From contig LBQD01000001.1 in assembly GCA_000990585.1 (NCBI GenBank), positions 1 to 60,964 on the forward strand: a DNA stretch of 60,964 nt. Reading direction: 5' to 3'. The notes under the pieces are model-generated. The model made no database searches, was not told the origin of the DNA, and was given only the letters and a program-made list of their open reading frames with translations. The DNA is from Candidatus Moranbacteria bacterium GW2011_GWE2_35_2- (GTDB lineage: Bacteria > Patescibacteriota > Minisyncoccia > Moranbacterales > UBA9337). Positions 14,436 to 43,845 of the stretch are shown in pieces (within the stretch, counting starts at the first letter, position 1; every line of letters starts with the position of its first letter). A program made the position numbers and the translations under genes.

Positions 14436-16097
14436 ATGAGCAACAGTAAAAAGAAAAAACAAGAAGATGATTCTGATGATTATATAAAGATAAAAAATAA
14501 ATATCTTTACACTTGTCTTTTTTCTCTTGTTTTGTTTTTTTTATTCGGTGCTTTTTTGCCGGTCGCTCAAGCTGATTTGAGCAAGGCATCGGCTCAAATT
14601 GATTTTGATGGTACAGTGATTGGCGGTACTGCCATTGTTTCCTATTATCCTAAAAGCGAAGGAAATAGTTATTCGGAAGCGCAAATTTTCAATAAGTGGG
14701 ACCTTGGACTGTCAATTTTAAACGGTGGAACGGTGGGTTCTTATGATATAGAACTTGGCAGCTATCAAGACACATCCTCTGTTTTCAGTAAATATGATTC
14801 ATTAAGCGCGGGCAAAACATTTACAGATGGATTGATGACATCCGGAGTTAATTCTAAAACTATTCTTAAGGGCGATCAGCATTCTGTTCGTTCCGTAGGA
14901 ACAATGGGTCGAGTTTTAAAAGTTCTTTCTACTGGTACGGTAACTTTTTCTAAAAAATATACTTCTAATTTTATCAATATAAACGCCGCTAATGGTTATG
15001 GTTGGGGAACTACGTGGGGATATTTAACTTTAAGGTATTGGGATAAAACATATGGTGTGTATACTGAGGGTATGTATGAAGACTTCGGATTAGGTTGGAC
15101 GAGTTATTCTCCCCCGGTGGGTGAGATTGCGAAAGTTGATTCCGGTCTCGTTTATCATTCAACATTTACCTCTCCTCTTCAAACAAAAAATATTCTTATC
15201 TCTAAATATGTAAGGGCTGGAGATATTATCGCTATTCAAGCAGGCGTTGAATCAAGGGTGGCAGTATGGCAGGACATTGTTCCTAATGATCCCCCGACCG
15301 TTCCAAAAATTACAGGTCCAACGTTAGGAATTATAAACACTAATTATTCTTTTAAATTATATTCTACTGATCCAAACGGCAATCCTCTGAGATATGGAGT
15401 GGATTGGGATAATAATAACACCGTTGATCAATGGTATCCCGCAACGCTATATGTGAATTCGGGAGTTGCGCAAAATGCTGTTCGGCAGTGGCCTGATGTC
15501 GGAGCAAAAACGTTCAAAGTCAGGGCTTGCGATAATAAAAATAGCTGTTCTGCGTTTGCATCTCACACTATCACGCTTTCTCTTCCCGCCGCTATACCAA
15601 CTTTGACCTTTTCATCCTTTCCCGCGACAATAAATGAAGGGGAATCAGCAACTTTGAATTGGAATACGCAAAATGTTACTTCTTGCTGGGCGCAAAGTCC
15701 ATTATCATGGCAAGGCTGGAAGGCTTTTGCCGATGGATCTCATGTTGAAGTCGTGTCTCCGGTAGTAAATACGACTTACGATCTTGAATGCCAGGATGAT
15801 GCTCTTGAAATGTCTACTGGTAAAAAAACAGCAACTATTACAGTTATTCCATGTGTTCCCACTTATTCTGATCATTTTTGTTCTGCAAGTGAAGATATTG
15901 ATTGTGCTTTGTCTGAAAATTGTGGAAAGATATCGATAGTAACTGCGATTTGTATGGCTACTAATTCTTGTACTAGCGAAATTGATATAGTACCGAATTC
16001 TGATTGTGTGGATCTGGGAATTGATTGCGCTAATTCAACTTCAAATTGTTCAGCATGTCCGGAGAGTAATTATAATTGGAGAGAAGTCGCTCCATAG
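14436..16097 (+). CDS. Large secreted protein with a PKD-like domain and a Cys-rich C-terminus
   Basis: N-terminal TM/signal; 'YSFKLYSTDPNGNPLRYGVDWDNNN...GAKTFKVRACDNKNSCS' resembles a PKD domain; about 14 Cys in the last 100 aa. Confidence 0.65.
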   Translation: MSNSKKKKQEDDSDDYIKIKNKYLYTCLFSLVLFFLFGAFLPVAQADLSKASAQIDFDGTVIGGTAIVSYYPKSEGNSYSEAQIFNKWDLGLSILNGGTVGSYDIELGSYQDTSSVFSKYDSLSAGKTFTDGLMTSGVNSKTILKGDQHSVRSVGTMGRVLKVLSTGTVTFSKKYTSNFININAANGYGWGTTWGYLTLRYWDKTYGVYTEGMYEDFGLGWTSYSPPVGEIAKVDSGLVYHSTFTSPLQTKNILISKYVRAGDIIAIQAGVESRVAVWQDIVPNDPPTVPKITGPTLGIINTNYSFKLYSTDPNGNPLRYGVDWDNNNTVDQWYPATLYVNSGVAQNAVRQWPDVGAKTFKVRACDNKNSCSAFASHTITLSLPAAIPTLTFSSFPATINEGESATLNWNTQNVTSCWAQSPLSWQGWKAFADGSHVEVVSPVVNTTYDLECQDDALEMSTGKKTATITVIPCVPTYSDHFCSASEDIDCALSENCGKISIVTAICMATNSCTSEIDIVPNSDCVDLGIDCANSTSNCSACPESNYNWREVAP

Positions 16098-16261
16098 AGG
16101 AAACTGTAATTCATAGCTAAAAACTATAAACAATCCACGGCATTCATTTCGCGGGTTGTTTTTTGTTTTTATTGTAAATTATTTTTTGCCGTGTGTTATG
16201 ATTCGATACGTTGTTATTTTGCGTTGTGGATAACCTTATTTTTTGGCTTAAAATCAGAGGC

Positions 16262-16289
16262 TTGCAGTAATTTTGTCTTGTGGTATAAT
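16262..16289 (+). promoter_or_regulatory. Promoter of the nrd operon (TTGCAG-16-TGnTATAAT)
   Basis: Extended -10 'tgGtataat' at 16281-16289. Confidence 0.6.
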
Positions 16290-16302
16290 TTACCTGTGGT
16301 AT

Positions 16303-16316
16303 ACAATATATAGTGT
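16303..16316 (+). promoter_or_regulatory. NrdR-box-like palindrome
   Basis: 'acaatatatagtgt' matches the A/T-rich palindromic NrdR operator pattern (acaCwAtATaTwGtgt). It sits just downstream of the -10, upstream of nrdR-nrdD. Confidence 0.6.
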
Positions 16317-16331
16317 AATAGTTGTAAAATT

Positions 16332-16781
16332 ATGATTTGTCCGTTCTGTAATAACAATGAAACGAAAGTCGTGGATTCTCGCGATACCAATGATAGGAAA
16401 GCTATTCGCCGCAGGCGCGAATGCGAGAAATGCAACGGACGATTTAGTACTTATGAAGAAGTGGAAATTATGCGACTTACGGTTATTAAAAAAGACGGAC
16501 AAAAGAGAGAATATAGTCAAGATAAAGTTCGATCAGGAATCGCCAAAGCAATCGAAAAAAGGCCGATTAATGATGAAAAATTGGAAAAAATCTTGAATGA
16601 TATTGAATATGAAATTCATTCGCGAGAAAAAGATGAAATAACCAGTAAGGAAATCGGAAGAATAATTTTGAAAAAACTCAAAGAAGTGGATGAGGTTGCA
16701 TATTTGCGTTTTGCTAGTGTATATAAGTCATTTCGCAGTGTGGACAGTTTCAAAAAAGAGATGGAAAGACTTAAAACTTAA
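16332..16781 (+). CDS. nrdR: Transcriptional repressor NrdR
   Basis: 'MICPFCNNNETKVVDSRD....RRRRECEKCNGRFSTYE' zinc ribbon plus an ATP-cone. Confidence 0.95.
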   Translation: MICPFCNNNETKVVDSRDTNDRKAIRRRRECEKCNGRFSTYEEVEIMRLTVIKKDGQKREYSQDKVRSGIAKAIEKRPINDEKLEKILNDIEYEIHSREKDEITSKEIGRIILKKLKEVDEVAYLRFASVYKSFRSVDSFKKEMERLKT

Positions 16782-16842
16782 AACTTAAAATATAGTATAA
16801 AATATAATTTGCAATTAATCCGGGGGGTGAAAAACAAAAATT

Positions 16843-18987
16843 ATGGCTCAAAACAAGAAGGGAGCGAAAAAGGGGAAAAGCTCGAAAATAAAAAAAGTTG
16901 AAAAAAAATCGTTGAAAAAAACGGGTAAAAAGTTTTCCGTAAAGAATAAGAAAACGGGAAAAATAACCAAAGTTATTAAAAGAAGTGGAAAAATTGTTCC
17001 GTTTAAGGCGGAAAAAATAGTAATAGCGGTATCAAAGGCTTTTTCGGAAACGGGAGAAGGCGGAGAAAAAGAAGCAAAAAAAATTTCCAGTAAAGTTGCG
17101 CAACTTTTAGGAAAAAATCGTCAGAAAGGATATATTCCGGAAATTGAAGAGATTCAGGATATAGTGGAGAAAGTTTTGATGATTTTGGATTTTGAGGAAA
17201 CAGCTAAGGCATATATTCTCTATCGCGAACAGCATCGAAAAATCAGGGAAACAGAAGAGGCACTCAAAGAGGCGGTGGATTTGATTGATAATTATATTCA
17301 AGAAGCGGATTGGAGAGTGAAGGAAAATTCCAATATGGGTTTTTCACTTCAAGGGATGAATAATTTTATTTCTTCCGTAGTGAGTTCACGTTATTGGATG
17401 GACAGGGTGTATACAAAAGATATTCAACAAGCTCACGAAAGAGGCGATTTGCACGTGCATGATTTGCAGATGGTAGCGGCATATTGTTGCGGATGGGATT
17501 TACATGATCTTTTAATGCGAGGTTTCGGAGGAGTGCCGGGAAAAGTTTCTAGTGCGCCACCAAAACATTTTCGCAGCGCCTTGGGGCAGATGGTTAATTT
17601 CATCTATACTTTGCAGGGAGAAGCTAATGGAGCGCAAGCATTTGCTAATTTCGATACTTTGTTGGCGCCGTTTATTCGTTTTGATAAGTTGAACCAAAAA
17701 GAGATTAAACAAGCGTTGCAAGAATTTGTTTTTAATATGAATGTTCCGACGCGCGTCGGGTTTCAAACGCCATTTTCCAATATTACCTTGGATTTGCAAG
17801 TTCCCTCTACATATAAAAACGAATCGGTAATAATTGGTGGAAAACCGCAAAAAGAAAAATACGGTGATTTTCAGAATGAAATGAATATGATTAACAAGGC
17901 GTTTGCGGAAGTGATGAGCGAAGGAGATGCGCAAAATCGAGTATTTACTTTTCCAATTCCAACTTATAATATTACCAAAGACTTTGATTGGAACGACCGG
18001 GCACTTAATCCGATTTGGGAAATGACTGCCAAATACGGAATGCCATATTTTGCAAATTTTGTCAACTCGGATATGAGTCCAGATGATGCTAGAAGTATGT
18101 GTTGCCGACTCAGATTGGATAATCGTGAGCTAAATAAGCGCGGTGGAGGACTTTTTGGAGCTAATCCGATGACGGGTTCTATCGGAGTGGTAACTATTAA
18201 TATGCCAAGAATCGGGTATTTGGCAAAAGATGAAAAAGATTTTTTTCAAAGATTGGATTATTTGATGGATTTGGCGAAAGAAAGTTTGGAAACAAAAAGA
18301 AGATTTATTGAAAAATTAACCGAAACAGGACTTTATCCATATTCTAGGTATTATTTGAAATCCATCAAACAGCGGCGAGGCAGTTATTGGGGAAATCATT
18401 TTTCAACTATCGGTTTAGTGGGAATGAACGAGGCATTGGAGAATTTGATTGGAGAAAAAATAGTTACCAAAAAAGGAAATAAATTGGCGCAGAAAATTTT
18501 GGAACATATGCGAAAACGTATGGTGAAATATCAAAAGGAAACCGATAATATGTATAATTTAGAGGCTACTCCAGCGGAAGGCACAACCTATCGTTTGGCA
18601 AAATTGGATCAAGCGAAATATTCGAAGATAAAATTTGCCAATGATAGCGCGGTGAAGGAAAATGGGGCGGAGCCGTATTATACCAACTCTTCCCAACTTC
18701 CAGTGGGATATACCAGTGATATTTTCGAAGCATTGGAATTGCAAGATAATTTGCAGACAAAATATACCGGCGGAACGGTGTTGCATGGATTTTTAGGGGA
18801 AAAAATAAATGATATTGAAGTAGTAAAGAATTTAGTAAAAACTATTGCTACCAAGTATCATTTGCCGTATTTTACTTTTACTCCAACTTTCAGTATCTGT
18901 CCCGAACACGGGTATTTATCCGGAGAGCATCACACTTGTCCGAAATGCGCGATTAAATTGGCACAGGTGAAGTTTGAAAAAGCATAA
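16843..18987 (+). CDS. nrdD: Anaerobic ribonucleoside-triphosphate reductase NrdD, large piece (lacks the glycyl-radical loop)
   Basis: Lys-rich N-terminal tail, ATP-cone, 'CCRLRLD', 'GGGLFGANPMTGSIGVVTINMPR', 'NLEATPAEG'. Ends 'FSICPEHGYLSGEHHTCPKCA...' without an RVxGY motif. Confidence 0.92.
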   Translation: MAQNKKGAKKGKSSKIKKVEKKSLKKTGKKFSVKNKKTGKITKVIKRSGKIVPFKAEKIVIAVSKAFSETGEGGEKEAKKISSKVAQLLGKNRQKGYIPEIEEIQDIVEKVLMILDFEETAKAYILYREQHRKIRETEEALKEAVDLIDNYIQEADWRVKENSNMGFSLQGMNNFISSVVSSRYWMDRVYTKDIQQAHERGDLHVHDLQMVAAYCCGWDLHDLLMRGFGGVPGKVSSAPPKHFRSALGQMVNFIYTLQGEANGAQAFANFDTLLAPFIRFDKLNQKEIKQALQEFVFNMNVPTRVGFQTPFSNITLDLQVPSTYKNESVIIGGKPQKEKYGDFQNEMNMINKAFAEVMSEGDAQNRVFTFPIPTYNITKDFDWNDRALNPIWEMTAKYGMPYFANFVNSDMSPDDARSMCCRLRLDNRELNKRGGGLFGANPMTGSIGVVTINMPRIGYLAKDEKDFFQRLDYLMDLAKESLETKRRFIEKLTETGLYPYSRYYLKSIKQRRGSYWGNHFSTIGLVGMNEALENLIGEKIVTKKGNKLAQKILEHMRKRMVKYQKETDNMYNLEATPAEGTTYRLAKLDQAKYSKIKFANDSAVKENGAEPYYTNSSQLPVGYTSDIFEALELQDNLQTKYTGGTVLHGFLGEKINDIEVVKNLVKTIATKYHLPYFTFTPTFSICPEHGYLSGEHHTCPKCAIKLAQVKFEKA

Positions 18988-19034
18988 ACGCAAATAAATA
19001 AATTTATATAATTAAAAAGTAAAAACAAAAATAT

Positions 19035-19337
19035 ATGGAAGACAAAAAATTGATTTGTCATGATTGCGGGAAAAAACTTCAAAAAGGGGAAGAGTATGTT
19101 AATTATACTCAAGACGAAAAAAATTATTTGGTGAAATGTCGTGAGTGCTATGAAAAAAATCCGGTAATGGAAAATTATCAACCTTGCGATGTGTATTCTC
19201 GCGTAGTCGGGTTTCACACTCCGATCAACCGTTGGAATAAAGGCAAGGTAGCGGAATGGGAGGATCGCAAGACGTTCGAAGTGGAGAATAAAAAAGAAGA
19301 TGAATGTGATGGGGATTGCAGCAAGGGCTGTTGCTAG
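19035..19337 (+). CDS. Stand-alone NrdD C-terminal module: zinc ribbon plus glycyl-radical loop
   Basis: 'CHDCG...CREC' followed by 'VYSRVVGFHTPINRWNKGKVAEWEDRKTF', the class III RNR glycyl-radical signature; Cys-rich tail 'ECDGDCSKGCC'. Confidence 0.8.
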   Translation: MEDKKLICHDCGKKLQKGEEYVNYTQDEKNYLVKCRECYEKNPVMENYQPCDVYSRVVGFHTPINRWNKGKVAEWEDRKTFEVENKKEDECDGDCSKGCC

Positions 19338-19466
19338 TTTAGTTACGTTGTAAAAAAAGGATAGAGGGGTGATTCCATTTAAAACTGGGATCGCCCTAAT
19401 TTTAAACAATTTGAAATTTATAATTTTCAATGAATTTTAATTGATTAAGTTTTAAATTAAAAATTT

Positions 19467-20165
19467 ATGGTGTTAGGTGGTTTCGAGAAATTTACAATGG
19501 TGGATTATCCAGGGAAATTAGCGACAACTGTTTTTACGGTTGGATGCAGTTTTCGCTGTCCTTTTTGTCATAATCCAGAATTTGTGGAACATGGAACATG
19601 GAATATGGAACATGGAATAATAGAGAAGAGTTTTTTTGAGTTTTTAGAAAATAGGAAGGGGAAGCTGGAAGCGGTTTGTATTACCGGAGGAGAACCGACG
19701 ATTCAACCGGATTTAATTTCTTTTATTGAGAAAATAAAAAAAATGGGATTTTTAGTTAAATTGGATTCCAATGGTACGCGTCCGGATGTTTTGAAAAAGA
19801 TAATTGACAGAAAAATTGTAGATTATATTGCGATGGACATTAAAAATATTCCGGAAAAATATAGTGAAACGGCAGGAGTAAAGGTGGATATAGAAAGAAT
19901 AAAGTTGAGTGTAAAATTAATAATAAACAGCAGAATTGACTATGAATTTCGTACCACAGTAGTGCCGGGGTTTCATAATGAAAAAGATTTTGAGAAAATT
20001 TCCGAATGGATTGATGGTGCGCGTGCTTATTTTCTGCAAGAATTTCGAGATTTCAAAGTTCTTGATTTGCAGATAGAAGAAAAGACGCAAGGAAAAAAAG
20101 TAGATTTGGAAAAAATAAAAAATAAAATAGGGGGAAAGTTTGGAAAAATAGGAATAAGGAGATAA
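19467..20165 (+). CDS. nrdG: Anaerobic RNR activating enzyme (radical SAM)
   Basis: 'DYPGKLATTVFTVGCSFRCPFCHNPE' (CxxxCxxC), 'ITGGEP'. Confidence 0.9.
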   Translation: MVLGGFEKFTMVDYPGKLATTVFTVGCSFRCPFCHNPEFVEHGTWNMEHGIIEKSFFEFLENRKGKLEAVCITGGEPTIQPDLISFIEKIKKMGFLVKLDSNGTRPDVLKKIIDRKIVDYIAMDIKNIPEKYSETAGVKVDIERIKLSVKLIINSRIDYEFRTTVVPGFHNEKDFEKISEWIDGARAYFLQEFRDFKVLDLQIEEKTQGKKVDLEKIKNKIGGKFGKIGIRR

Positions 20166-20232
20166 TGAGGTGCTTGACAAGTATGAATACTCTGATATTA
20201 TTGCATTAAGTTTTTATAAAATTTAACTTAAA

Positions 20233-20258
20233 ATACTGCTTGCTGGCAGTACTTTTTT
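20233..20258 (+). terminator. Intrinsic terminator after nrdG
   Basis: tactgc/gcagta stem followed by cttttttat. Confidence 0.65.
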
Positions 20259-20288
20259 ATTGATAATCTAATTACTAAAATAAAAAAA

Positions 20289-20744
20289 ATGACACGATTA
20301 ATCACGAAGGATGGACTTAAAAAACTTCAGGGTGAATTTGAAGAACGTAAAACAAAGGTGCGGCAGGAGATAGCACAGGCAATCAAAGAGGCGAAAGAGC
20401 AGGGAGATTTGAGTGAGAACGCTGAATATTCTGAAGCTAAGAGACAACAAGCTGAAAATGAAACACGGATCGCACAACTTGAAGTTATGATTAAAAATTC
20501 AGAAGTCGTTGAGCGTAATGGCAATAGTGATTGTGTTGAGATTGGTTCATTTGTGAAAGTAAAATTCAATGGAAGCGAGATGGAATTTCAACTTGTCGGT
20601 TCTAATGAAACTGATCCGGCGAATATGAAAATTTCTAATGAATCTCCGATGGGGAAATCTTTTATGGGCAAGTGTAAGGGAGAAAATGTTTCCGTGGAAA
20701 CTCCGGGAGGAAAGGTTAAGTATGAAATTTTAGAAGTCAAATAA
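20289..20744 (+). CDS. greA: Transcription elongation factor GreA
   Basis: 'GDLSENAEYSEAKRQQ', C-terminal 'ISNESPMGKSFMGK'. Confidence 0.93.
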   Translation: MTRLITKDGLKKLQGEFEERKTKVRQEIAQAIKEAKEQGDLSENAEYSEAKRQQAENETRIAQLEVMIKNSEVVERNGNSDCVEIGSFVKVKFNGSEMEFQLVGSNETDPANMKISNESPMGKSFMGKCKGENVSVETPGGKVKYEILEVK

Positions 20745-25056: not shown

Positions 25057-25145
25057 TTTGACAAAACGTGTAAAAAGTATTATTATTGTTTGGACGTATT
25101 AAGTTAAGTATTGTTTGATACATTGAAAATTTTGCTTTATATCAA

Positions 25146-25549
25146 GGTAAATCGGGCAATTGCTCTGCTGATGTTTTGCATTGGCGGAGAGGAAAGTCCG
25201 GACATTCCCCTGGTTTTATACTAGGGAGCAGGGTAGCGGCTCCGACGCTCGAAAGGGTGCGGAGTTCCGACATTGAAAAATCGTCGGAGGTAATGCCCGT
25301 CATGGGGAAACCCAAGAGGTGCGAGCAGAGACGTTTTATTTCGAAAGAAATAAAATATCCCCCTCACGAGGGATAAGCTCTTATAGTAATATAAGAGGTG
25401 AAACGGCTAAATCCTTACCTGAATGCAAGGTCGTACTCTGACGTTATGTCAGGGGGTGCCGCTTGACTCCGACGGTAACGTCGGAGCTAGATAAATGATT
25501 GCCACTCCGACCTTGCGTCGGAGGACAGAATCCGGCTTATAGATTTGCC
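25146..25549 (+). ncRNA. rnpB: RNase P RNA (bacterial type)
   Basis: 'gagaggaaagtccggac' (CR-I), 'acagaatccggcttat' (CR-V), P1 pairing 25146-25153 with 25541-25549. GC-rich island in an AT-rich context; TTGACA-17-TATTAT at 25058-25086 upstream. Confidence 0.9.
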
Positions 25550-25604
25550 TTGGTATGAAGTTGAATTTTTGTTGAAAGTATTTGTGGTGTATAATAGAAA
25601 TAAT

Positions 25605-27041
25605 ATGAAACGATCCGAATTATTTTTTAGTGCTATTCAAGTTCCGGCTGATTTTGCGATGATAGTTTTGGGCGCTATCAGCGCTTTTTTTATTCGTGAA
25701 AATTTGGAAGTGACGAAATTTTTCAACCTTCAGCCGCTTAAATTTCATAATGTGCATTTTGAAGAATACATTAATATCGTTTTTATTTCCGTTCCTTTTT
25801 TTCTGCTTATCTATGCTTTGGAAGGATTGTATGATATTCGGGCGACGCGAAAATTTTGGAAAGAAACTTTTAAGGTTTTTACTGCCACTTCAATTGGCTT
25901 GGTGATTATAATTATTGCGATATTTCTCAAGAGAGAATGGTTTTCTTCTCGTTTTATAATTTTGGCGGCGTGGTTTATTGCCGTTTTTTATGTTGTTGCG
26001 GCTAGATATATTTTGCATAGAATTCAGCTGTGGCTTTTGAAAAGTCGAGGAATTGGCATTCATCGCGTGCTTTTGATTGGACATAATGGAAAGGTGAAGG
26101 AGATTTCTCGAATGATAAGGAGGAATCGCAATTTAGGTTATCGTATTGTGGATATTATTAATACGGCTCAATTAAAAGTGATCAAGCAAATAAAGAAAGA
26201 AAAAGGAGTTGATGAGGTAATTTTGTGTTCATCGTCTATTCCGGATGATGAATTGGAAAAACTGATTGATTTTTGCGCCATCAATAATATTTCATATAAA
26301 TTTGTTCCAACAACTTTGCAAACCTCAAAGTATAAAATAGGCGTGTTGGGCGGGGAGCCGATTATAGAAGTTTTGCATACTCCGCTAGACGGATGGGGGA
26401 GAATTACCAAGAGAATTTTCGATATCATTTTTTCAGTTGTTTTAATTATTCTTACTTTCCCAATCATGCTGCTTGTAGCGCTTTTGATAAAATTGGAAGA
26501 TAGGAATGGACCGATAATATACAAAAACGAAAGAATCGGAGCTGAGGGAATAAAATTTTTTGCGTACAAATTTCGTTATATGAAGTGGGAATATAGTATT
26601 TCCAAAGATAATCCTAATTTTGAAAAAGCATTTGAATTCGAAAAAAAACTGATTACTGAAAGGAGTGTGCGTCAAGGACCACTATATAAAATCAAAGATG
26701 ATCCGCGAAAAACAAAAGTCGGAAGATTTATTGAAAAATATTCCATTGATGAATTTCCTCAGTTTTTCAATGTGCTTTTCGGTTCAATGAGCTTGATTGG
26801 CCCGCGTCCACATCAAAAACGGGAAGTGGAGAAATATATGGAATATCATAGAAGATTACTCACAATTAAACCTGGCGTAACTGGAATGGCACAGGTTTCA
26901 GGTCGATCCGATTTGGATTTCGAGGATGAATATAAATTAGATTTATTTTATATTGAAAATTGGTCATTGACATTGGATATTCAAATAATTTTCAAGACAA
27001 TCGGAGTCTTGCTTCATAGAAGAAAAAATAATAGCAATTAA
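25605..27041 (+). CDS. Polyprenyl-phosphate sugar phosphotransferase (WbaP/EpsL-like bacterial sugar transferase)
   Basis: N-terminal TM bundle; C-terminal 'KRIFDI', 'GPIIYKNERIG..G..F..YKFR', 'DEFPQFFNVLFGSMSLIGPRP', 'KPGVTGMAQV'. Confidence 0.9.
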   Translation: MKRSELFFSAIQVPADFAMIVLGAISAFFIRENLEVTKFFNLQPLKFHNVHFEEYINIVFISVPFFLLIYALEGLYDIRATRKFWKETFKVFTATSIGLVIIIIAIFLKREWFSSRFIILAAWFIAVFYVVAARYILHRIQLWLLKSRGIGIHRVLLIGHNGKVKEISRMIRRNRNLGYRIVDIINTAQLKVIKQIKKEKGVDEVILCSSSIPDDELEKLIDFCAINNISYKFVPTTLQTSKYKIGVLGGEPIIEVLHTPLDGWGRITKRIFDIIFSVVLIILTFPIMLLVALLIKLEDRNGPIIYKNERIGAEGIKFFAYKFRYMKWEYSISKDNPNFEKAFEFEKKLITERSVRQGPLYKIKDDPRKTKVGRFIEKYSIDEFPQFFNVLFGSMSLIGPRPHQKREVEKYMEYHRRLLTIKPGVTGMAQVSGRSDLDFEDEYKLDLFYIENWSLTLDIQIIFKTIGVLLHRRKNNSN

Positions 27042-37011: not shown

Positions 37012-37084
37012 AGCCACCTGCCGGAATCGAACCGGCGACCTATGCGTTACGAGTGCATTGCTCTGCCAACTGAGCTAAGGTGGC
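37012..37084 (-). tRNA. tRNA-Thr (anticodon CGU)
   Basis: Reverse complement gives GCCACCT..AGCTCAGTTGGCAGAGC..ct-CGT-aa..GGTTCGATTCC..AGGTGGC cloverleaf; CCA not encoded. Confidence 0.92.
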
Positions 37085-43774: not shown

Positions 43775-43845
43775 TGGGGATTAGCCAAGCGGTAAGGCAC
43801 AAGGTTCTGGTCCTTGCATCGGGGGTTCGAATCCCTCATCCCCAA
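43775..43845 (+). tRNA. tRNA-Gln (anticodon CUG)
   Basis: TGGGGAT..AGCCAAGCGGTAAGGC..tt-CTG-gt..GGTTCGAATCC..ATCCCCA; extended -10 'tggtatagt' upstream. Confidence 0.92.

Follow-up and report, generated by a model that had tools for sequence, protein, structure and literature searches.

The window analysed here is a stretch of 60,964 nucleotides from Candidatus Moranbacteria bacterium GW2011_GWE2_35_2- (contig LBQD01000001.1, positions 1 to 60,964). It carries four consecutive genes on the + strand, namely nrdR, an nrdD-like open reading frame (ORF) of 714 aa, an ORF of 100 aa and nrdG. The glycyl-radical motif belonging to class III ribonucleotide reductase (RNR) was found on the 100-aa ORF and not on the 714-aa one and, as judged from sequence comparisons, the locus very likely encodes an obligate two-polypeptide class III RNR whose glycyl radical is supplied in trans. 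The features of this block are as follows (CPR, Candidate Phyla Radiation).

16332..16781, + strand: nrdR, transcriptional repressor of RNR genes with zinc ribbon and ATP-cone (TIGR00244 8.7e-55; Pfam Zn_ribbon_NrdR and ATP-cone)
16843..18987, + strand: NrdD', truncated class III RNR catalytic subunit without glycyl-radical motif, 714 aa (Pfam NRDD 9.5e-188)
16969-17238, + strand: ATP-cone of NrdD' (Pfam ATP-cone 2e-22)
17323-18951, + strand: NRDD ten-stranded alpha/beta barrel of NrdD' (Pfam NRDD)
18100..18105, + strand: Cys420-Cys421 of the SMCCRLRLD finger loop, presumed thiyl-radical site (invariant in 70 homologues)
18898..18948, + strand: native NrdD zinc site C686, H689, C699, C702, CPEH...CPKC (invariant, alignment A4)
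18967..18987, + strand: tail VKFEKA and stop codon of NrdD' (MAFFT of split and unsplit CPR NrdDs)
18988..19034, + strand: A/T-rich intergenic spacer of 47 nt with an A-rich leader and no Shine-Dalgarno motif (TAA stops in all three frames)
19035..19337, + strand: putative small radical-bearing subunit with NrdD-type glycyl radical domain, 100 aa (Pfam NRDD, 46 homologous clusters)
19056..19148, + strand: four-Cys zinc ribbon C8, C11, C35, C38, then linker YEKNPVMENYQP (Cys invariant in 117 family members)
19185..19277, + strand: glycyl-radical segment CDVYSRVVG59FHTPINRWNKGKVAEWEDRKTF (conserved motif)
19209-19211, + strand: Gly59 codon, GGG
19305..19334, + strand: Cys-rich C-terminal tail CDGDCSKGCC
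19467..20165, + strand: nrdG, radical-SAM (S-adenosylmethionine) activase (TIGR02495 NrdG2 5.4e-64; Pfam Radical_SAM and Fer4_12)

The large ORF was assigned to the class III catalytic subunits by two profiles, Pfam NRDD (PF13597, E=9.5e-188, profile positions 1-528 of 562) and NCBIfam NF006126 "ribonucleoside triphosphate reductase" (1045 bits for a cut-off of 548, positions 2-649 of 684). Its Cys420/Cys421 loop aligned with ASCCRL of Thermotoga maritima NrdD and, by analogy with the established NrdD mechanism, these residues are presumed to receive the radical from the glycine. Likewise, its zinc site, for which metal binding is predicted, aligned with the CEDGH...CPVC site of the same enzyme. 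The C-terminus reads ...FSICPEHGYLSGEHHTCPKCAIKLAQVKFEKA up to the stop codon. An earlier note, made from the sequence alone, had this ORF ending just after the zinc site; it actually runs 12 residues further, through VKFEKA. The same note allowed for an overlooked glycyl-radical motif in the large ORF, which was sought by pattern (R[VITC]xG[YFW]) and found nowhere in the 714 aa. NrdD' is devoid of the radical glycine (RVxGY), which is encoded by the other ORF, of 100 aa. The locus as a whole is therefore that of a class III RNR system, although its large ORF by itself is not a complete NrdD.

The AlphaFold2 (AF2) model of NrdD' had a mean predicted local distance difference test score (pLDDT) of 73, and Foldseek matched it to every solved class III RNR with E-values from 1e-29 to 1e-20 (1e-29 for P. 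copri NrdD and 1e-23 for T. maritima NrdD). Segments of low confidence were the Cys loop (418-443), the zinc site, the tail, the N-terminal 38 residues and residues 155-171, 302-310 and 642-652. At the N-terminus, a Lys-rich extension of about 40 residues (window 16843-16960, pLDDT <50) precedes the ATP-cone. As for the Cys loop, zinc site and tail, the low model confidence could reflect either the missing partner or a shallow alignment.

The small ORF reads MEDKKLICHDCGKKL...KCRECYEKNPVMENYQPCDVYSRVVGFHTPINRWNKGKVAEWEDRKTF...CDGDCSKGCC and, as the earlier note proposed, has a ribbon of its own (C8, C11, C35, C38) followed by the glycine segment. It matched the end of both profiles (Pfam NRDD, positions 510-562 of 562, E=3.2e-9; NF006126, positions 643-683 of 684). 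Since NF006126 is covered at positions 2-649 by the one ORF and at 643-683 by the other, the two together rebuild one NrdD. NRDD was the only Pfam match of the small ORF, and PF01228, the Gly_radical domain of pyruvate formate-lyase (PFL) type, was not matched at E <=0.01. In essence, the product is a glycyl radical domain encoded as a small protein in its own right, and residues Y54, S55, R56, V57, V58, G59, F60, W67, N68 and K71 were invariant among its homologues. Alignment with characterised NrdDs, which the earlier note had suggested, placed Gly59 on the RIVGY glycine of T. maritima NrdD, the Thermotoga radical glycine: the profile of the small family aligned VYSRVVG59F with KVDEYMRIVG621YLVPVSAFNK of this solved enzyme (G621 in alignment numbering). 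The family profile was needed to reach that match, phmmer searches of PDB sequences with the small protein having returned noise only. The AF2 model of the small protein (mean pLDDT 81) displayed strands 6-8, 21-23 and 33-35 in the ribbon and a glycine segment that was well scored (pLDDT 83-91) but mostly extended. Foldseek retrieved only generic zinc ribbons for this model, none at E <=0.001, and was uninformative on the glycyl-radical part. PHROGs contained no family for the small protein and gave only weak matches to the C-terminus of phrog_487 NrdD.

Directly 3' of the small gene, where the earlier note placed it, lies nrdG (19467-20165, TIGR02495 5.4e-64). A cognate radical-SAM activase is thus encoded beside the class III RNR genes and, from its family assignment, would be the activase expected to abstract a hydrogen atom from Gly59.

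The arrangement extends well beyond the window. The small protein belongs with 46 homologous clusters (90% identity) of 67-110 aa, displaying BLASTP identities of 40-77% (at least 58% in the first 43), and the named clusters are Candidatus Moranbacteria or Patescibacteria. Two contigs encoding homologues carry nrdR, nrdD (698-701 aa), the small gene (93-104 aa) and nrdG in the same order. The earlier note had called for a search of related genomes; a scan of one genome per GTDB species recovered the nrdR-nrdD'-small order in 25 Moranbacteria species representatives (loci L010-L034), and it was also found in L001-L006, further metagenome loci being included. The central claim of that note, an NrdD split so that its Gly loop resides on a separate 100-aa zinc-ribbon protein, is borne out both by this distribution and by a motif confined to the small ORF. 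In all of L001-L034 nrdR occupies the first position of the conserved nrdR-nrdD'-small-nrdG block. The last gene, nrdG, was present 3' of the small gene in 23 of the 25 GTDB loci of Moranbacteria. L019 and L022 contained no NrdG ORF downstream, and L030 stops just after the small gene. In none of L010-L034 are the two ORFs joined, and frames 0, +1 and +2 of the small ORF with respect to the large one all occur. Pairwise NG86 ratios of nonsynonymous to synonymous substitution rates (dN/dS) had a median of 0.15 for the small ORF (0.048 against L010, its closest relative) and amounted to 0.06 for the large ORF (0.20 in its last 20 alignment columns); by these estimates, both ORFs are under purifying selection. 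A chance origin of the small ORF is dismissed on this basis and on that of its 46 clusters. Three of the loci (L010, L011 and L020), from binchicken co-assemblies named "uncultured Bdellovibrionales bacterium", display a Moranbacteria-type nrdR-nrdD'-small-nrdG block, and the name is probably a taxonomic mislabel. Their small proteins are 90%, 81% and 70% identical, respectively, to that of the window, L010 being the closest relative found.

These data bear on whether an ordinary nrdD was disrupted, either by an error of sequencing or assembly or by a recent nonsense or frameshift mutation, so that the second ORF would be its out-of-frame remainder. Assemblies from metagenomes do contain such errors, as illustrated by L018 with its truncated small ORF and frameshifted nrdG. 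Yet the same split recurred in 25 species representatives and in 46 to 68 protein clusters from independent projects, with spacers of 44-297 nt and all frame offsets. The small ORF moreover has its own start codon, and it encodes an N-terminal ribbon that unsplit NrdD lacks as well as the pre-glycine strand for a second time; dN/dS is well below 1. An artefact, whose probability we consider negligible, is for practical purposes refuted.

The earlier description of the spacer as a 47-nt A/T stretch with stops in all frames was accurate (TAA in all three, 18988-19034). In relatives, the spacers between nrdD and the small gene are non-coding, of 44-297 nt, and conserved neither in length nor in sequence. 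Rfam, applied at the gathering threshold to the window and at an E-value threshold to five related loci, revealed no intron or riboswitch in the spacers of either, and Pfam revealed no intein or endonuclease domain in either ORF, the large one consisting of ATP-cone and NRDD only. No self-splicing or mobile element separates the two nrdD pieces, in agreement with the earlier note, which had dismissed an intron or homing endonuclease in the spacer.

A rejoining of the two ORFs into an ordinary single chain, after transcription through a self-splicing intron, at the ribosome through frameshifting or bypassing, or after translation through a split intein, has some precedent: T4 gene 60 bypasses a 50-nt gap, close in size to the 47-nt spacer, and interruptions of phage nrdD are frequent, whether by group I introns, by inteins or by homing endonucleases (PMC3653736). 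For the present locus it is extremely improbable. Apart from the lack of an Rfam intron in the window or the related loci searched, the spacer offers too little room and shows no conservation of length or sequence, the tail of the large ORF holds no intein N-fragment, and the N-terminus of the small protein is a conserved zinc ribbon starting from a conserved Met. In viruses the gene for the small protein also stands by itself, with no nrdD in its vicinity, and a joined product would contain ribbon and strand twice. In view of the variable spacer length and of the small ORF's own conserved N-terminus, bypassing of the T4 gene 60 type was rejected. Earlier accounts of "split nrdD" correspond to introns, inteins, endonucleases or unexplained phage fragments, such as those of Aeromonas phage phiAS4, and resemble the window in having more than one ORF (PMC3653736). 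In those cases the interruptions are spliced out or reflect unexplained recent fragmentation, whereas the window displays no intervening element, a break at the glycyl radical domain and extra sequence on both pieces, in an arrangement that is ancient and selected.

Some of the long spacers in other loci have a feature of their own. Those of L001 (4716-5012), L012 (3719-3994) and 11 others (alignment A5) share a box CAATTAATTGCTC-loop-GAGCGTTTAAAATAA, composed of a 10-bp palindrome and a short GC hairpin located about 100 nt 5' of the small gene, and RNAalifold backs only three pairs of this hairpin. The box may serve as an operator, as a weak terminator or as an internal promoter; it is missing from the 47-nt spacer of the window and was set aside as irrelevant to it.

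Comparison with unsplit enzymes located the break. Among the best 120 homologues of the large ORF, the 68 closest clusters (at least 73% identity) were all without the glycine motif and ended CPKC-x6-8-[VAP]KFEKV. The next tier comprised 40 unsplit CPR enzymes reading ...CPKCVVEQKTEVYSRVVGYIRPVEQWNKGKQAEF..., and 12 further clusters displayed truncated or degenerate tails (e.g. ETYSKAI followed by a stop, EMYFKVGEE... and EVFLKVGER...). Three of these degenerate-tail lineages were checked, and each had a gene of 96-105 aa for a zinc-ribbon/glycyl-radical protein between nrdD and nrdG. Where the 68 closest clusters end xKFEKV, the unsplit sister enzymes read CPKCVVEQKTEVYSRVVGY. In the MAFFT alignment VKFEKA(K) falls under EVYSRV(V)G, the window ORF ending 1 residue before the glycine column and the large ORFs of several relatives exactly at it. 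Since VKFEKA(K) aligns under EVYSRV(V), the alignment identifies the tail of NrdD' as a degenerate, conserved and vestigial copy of the pre-glycine strand EVYSRV of the unsplit sisters.

Two unsplit sister loci displayed the same synteny, nrdR-nrdD-nrdG, with no small gene. The presence of both ribbon and pre-glycine strand in two copies argues against simple stop-codon fission in this lineage. From these short sequences and two unsplit loci, the favoured origin is one in which a complete glycyl radical module was acquired or duplicated, after which the in-cis one was lost. An intermediate state, with intact NrdD and small gene together, was not found in the two unsplit sister loci, a sample too small to decide between spare-part capture and tandem duplication. 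Among unusually long proteins, a large subunit of split type (P0236, 1014 aa) displayed intein and LAGLIDADG Pfam domains and another (L041 1141-3972, 943 aa) an insert of about 240 aa with no Pfam match, while a 2553-aa open frame on a viral contig (L100 2537-10198) holds an unsplit, full-length NrdD.

The ribbon of the small protein distinguishes it further. A profile of the N-terminal 49 residues of the Moranbacteria small proteins matched 119 of 134 other stand-alone proteins, the glycyl-radical part of which had been removed beforehand, and none of 120 NrdD C-termini. The profile thus marks the ribbon as a hallmark of a separate small-protein family rather than a copy of the NrdD zinc site. 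The earlier note had argued from a duplicated ribbon against a frameshift; its conclusion stands (25 species, all frames), but the ribbon is not a duplicate of the NrdD zinc site. Searching 1.84 billion representative proteins with the small-family profile yielded 3522 matches, the best 150 of which, separate clusters at 50% identity, were analysed. All 150 were of 42-159 aa and 143 began with Met. The four-Cys ribbon and glycyl radical domain were combined in 115 of them; the other 35 showed no four-Cys ribbon by the pattern used and were mostly peptides of 42-142 aa with the glycine motif. Sequence data of this kind characterise the family as an autonomous, stand-alone module rather than a leftover. 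At the other end of the protein, at least 2 Cys occurred within the last 14 residues in 34 of the 46 Moranbacteria homologues (as CxxC, CxC or CC). The CDGDCSKGCC tail is reminiscent of the C-terminal redox tails found in RNRs of classes I and II and, speculatively, may be a redox shuttle.

Small-protein relatives were also encoded on 309 IMG/VR stretches, of which 80 were sampled (L054-L133). In 71 of these 80 loci the ORF with the glycine motif was small, and neither an NrdD barrel nor NrdG was encoded within 10 kb; ordinary full-length NrdD was found in 8. Viral orphans (L007-L009, L052, L053 and L054-L133) mostly consist of zinc ribbon and radical domain, 100-145 aa in length. One such gene sits between major-head and head-closure genes and another adjoins an HNH endonuclease. 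In archaeal virus ANMV-1 (L053, KP703175.1, 38.5 kb) the only RNR gene is a coding sequence of 144 aa (25525-25959, - strand) with the annotation "anaerobic ribonucleoside triphosphate reductase", and its 38.5 kb encode neither an NrdD barrel nor NrdG; the ANMV-1 paper labels this gene nrdD with no comment. From their gene context, viral orphans are candidate virus-borne spare parts for host NrdD. A cellular orphan was noted as well: a Leptospirales metagenome-assembled genome (MAG) contains a 67-aa ORF with the NrdD glycine motif (L047 3983-4186), and the 4 kb to each side of it encode neither NrdD nor NrdG. This ORF could be a stand-alone copy of the cell itself or belong to a prophage.

Such orphans, together with a glycyl-radical segment predicted by AF2 to be largely extended when alone, raise the possibility that the small protein is a decoy or radical buffer, absorbing NrdG activity or storing the radical, and hence a regulator rather than a cofactor; viral copies could in principle inhibit host synthesis of deoxynucleoside triphosphates (dNTPs). 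We hold this to be very unlikely. The operon would then supply no glycine to its conserved catalytic subunit, and the conserved motif is the full NrdD insertion loop, VYSRVVG.x.P...WN.GK..E, which extends beyond an activase recognition site. In addition, T4 Y06I, the precedent for a phage-encoded glycyl radical domain, serves rescue and not inhibition (PMC13450708, its reference 50).

An obligate two-chain reductase finds its closest functional parallel in GrcA/YfiD of E. coli and Y06I of T4. These are likewise small stand-alone glycyl radical domains, presumably activated by the cognate radical-SAM activase, and virus-encoded versions exist both for them and for the window family. GrcA/YfiD is inserted into a body without a working glycine which keeps an overlapping strand (PMC13450708), a situation comparable to VKFEKA. 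The small protein of the window differs in being of NRDD rather than PFL-type Gly_radical type, in its four-Cys zinc ribbon and in its target, a ribonucleotide reductase. Furthermore, GrcA is a facultative rescue of a full-length enzyme, whereas the partner lacks the glycine here and across the whole clade. Since the small protein holds the only copy of the glycine at the locus, it is considered an obligate subunit and not a spare. The analogy to GrcA/YfiD drawn in the earlier note was thus apt as a functional likeness and did not extend to family or spare status. Facultative rescue may rather apply to the virus-borne orphan relatives.

Compared with canonical NrdD-NrdG systems (T4, E. coli, T. 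maritima and P. copri), the window has the same ATP-cone, barrel, Cys finger loop, zinc site, Gly motif, adjacent nrdG, NrdR and fold, and its large ORF is 70-74% identical to unsplit CPR NrdDs. It departs from them in a Gly loop carried by a second polypeptide with an extra ribbon and in a large chain that ends before the glycine column. Class I RNR, with its alpha and separate radical-generating beta subunits, also has a stable radical on a small separate subunit from which it is delivered to the catalytic Cys. Yet the small subunits are not homologous, the radical is tyrosyl/metal instead of glycyl, and transfer is long-range instead of by loop insertion.

Oxygen cleaves glycyl-radical proteins at the glycine. 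After such cleavage PFL is re-armed by YfiD/GrcA, the cleaved enzyme retaining one strand with an overlapping counterpart in the spare part (PMC13450708), and by analogy the VKFEKA stub would have the same geometry. With deoxyadenosine triphosphate, the domain of P. copri NrdD that comprises zinc site, Gly loop and tail, its glycyl radical domain, is mobile to the point of vanishing from cryo-electron microscopy maps, and the radical still forms (PMC11226230). Supply in trans is plausible because this domain is mobile while the radical forms, and because PFL is rescued by YfiD/GrcA. The 714-aa protein would then be the catalytic body, with its ATP-cone, ten-stranded barrel, Cys420/421 finger loop, zinc site and pre-glycine strand stub. 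NrdG would bind the small protein and use SAM to form the Gly59 radical, after which the small protein would dock on the large subunit and insert its Gly loop into the barrel beside the Cys loop. From the glycine the radical would move on to Cys and then to the substrate, as it does in ordinary NrdD. The Cys-rich tail, or a fused glutaredoxin in archaea, may aid the delivery of reducing equivalents. Should oxygen cleave at the glycine, only the 100-residue protein would be lost and remade, so that the genome would in effect encode the oxygen-cleaved form of NrdD together with a permanent spare part. We infer complex formation, activation in trans and the oxygen-repair rationale from these comparisons, and economy under transient oxygen as the benefit of the split is a conjecture.

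Several points weigh against an obligate two-polypeptide enzyme. The AF2 model of NrdD' is weak (pLDDT <50) precisely in the Cys loop and C-terminus, and the docking of a second zinc ribbon beside the retained native zinc site is unaccounted for. Conjectural as it is, the rationale of oxygen economy must also face the many CPR relatives in similar habitats that retain an unsplit enzyme. Finally, the window represents 61 kb of a genome in which a second intact RNR could be located elsewhere.

This last point leads to a reading in which an intact RNR elsewhere does the work, the small protein then serving as a facultative spare or as a regulator and its large neighbour being a paralogue in decay or put to another use. 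Apart from the single 61-kb window in view, it draws on the coexistence of true GrcA-type spare parts with full-length enzymes (PMC13450708) and on the virus-borne orphan copies, which must serve another's enzyme. We consider it unlikely, in view of a large ORF with dN/dS of 0.06 and invariant catalytic Cys, zinc ligands and ATP-cone. This ORF occupies the canonical nrdR-nrdD-nrdG position, syntenic with the unsplit sister gene, and its truncation is stable over the whole clade. As general knowledge, CPR genomes are small and seldom retain redundant enzymes.

A broader proposal, to which we give about even chances, is that zinc-ribbon/glycyl-radical proteins form a large undescribed cofactor family for class III RNR, obligate in several CPR lineages and acting as a viral auxiliary that re-arms host NrdD. 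The CPR catalytic chain would thereby be frozen in the form that oxygen cleavage produces, and the viral copies, which many viruses of bacteria and archaea have as a lone module, would re-arm oxygen-damaged or glycine-less host NrdD, sustaining dNTP synthesis during infection.

Split nrdD genes of another kind were recorded by the genome scan in Deferribacterales (including Seleniivibrio woodruffii and Geovibrio), a Halanaerobium MAG, a gammaproteobacterial MAG and archaeal MAGs (L035-L046 and L051). As in the window, the break lies after the native zinc site and the glycine is on a separate ORF beside nrdG. In contrast to the window, the small ORF is of 44-61 aa with no ribbon (e.g. L035 3941-4108 and L039 1393-1527), its N-terminus appears helical, as does the tail of the large subunit in place of a vestigial strand, and it often overlaps the stop of the large ORF by 4-14 nt, with a strong GGAGG Shine-Dalgarno motif, an arrangement of translational coupling. 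These ribbon-less systems look like independent fission events. Gene order in Halanaerobium is nrdD-nrdG-small, and NCBI lists a 55-aa version for the cultured species Seleniivibrio woodruffii. Two archaeal MAGs, of Methanosarcinales and Woesearchaeota, encode the small subunit as a fusion with a glutaredoxin/thioredoxin-like C-terminal domain that has a CPNC motif (L044 3980-4399 and L043 2140-2586; PF00462, 28 bits for a cut-off of 22.9).

To our knowledge, the radical glycine is on the catalytic chain in every class III reductase studied by biochemistry and structure and in every glycyl radical enzyme other than PFL with GrcA. The searchable full-text literature, with subscription-only papers outside its scope, contained no description of a split or trans-acting NrdD glycyl radical domain, nor of NrdD in CPR. 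According to a review of June 2026, formate lyases are the only enzymes with known spare-part proteins, and the question is left open there for other glycyl radical enzymes (PMC13450708). The locus and its relatives provide natural systems for asking whether glycyl radical enzymes other than PFL have spare parts. If the proposal is true, they would represent the first such system, with a radical cofactor traded between viruses and cells and a DNA-synthesis enzyme whose radical domain is a separate, cheap and replaceable protein. The sequences suggest at least two docking designs, ribbon plus vestigial strand or paired helices, and Seleniivibrio woodruffii offers a cultured organism for their study. 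The virus-borne orphans suggest a new class of auxiliary metabolic gene, and the split could inform how anaerobes with tiny genomes handle transient oxygen. Annotation is concerned as well, the large ORF being routinely named a complete reductase and the small one a hypothetical protein or reductase.

As to the surroundings of the block, a promoter and terminator scan of 16000-20600 yielded sites no more numerous than in shuffled sequence and none in the spacer; it recorded a weak hairpin at the end of the small ORF (19318-19334). A Shine-Dalgarno-like motif was missing in 38 of the 46 window ORFs of at least 200 aa, an A-rich leader being the norm here. Of these 46 ORFs, 43 are on the + strand, and the GC content is 36.9%. 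Since Rfam detected rRNAs, RNase P RNA and tRNAs, the window is chromosomal:

1-470: 23S rRNA 3' end
661-773: 5S rRNA
25144-25555: RNase P RNA, bacterial class A
37012-37084 (- strand) and 43775-43845: two tRNAs

Just 5' of nrdR, a 553-aa ORF (14436-16097) is rich in Lys and Asp at its N-terminus, has a hydrophobic segment and is very rich in Cys towards its C-terminus; by this composition it looks like a secreted or surface protein.

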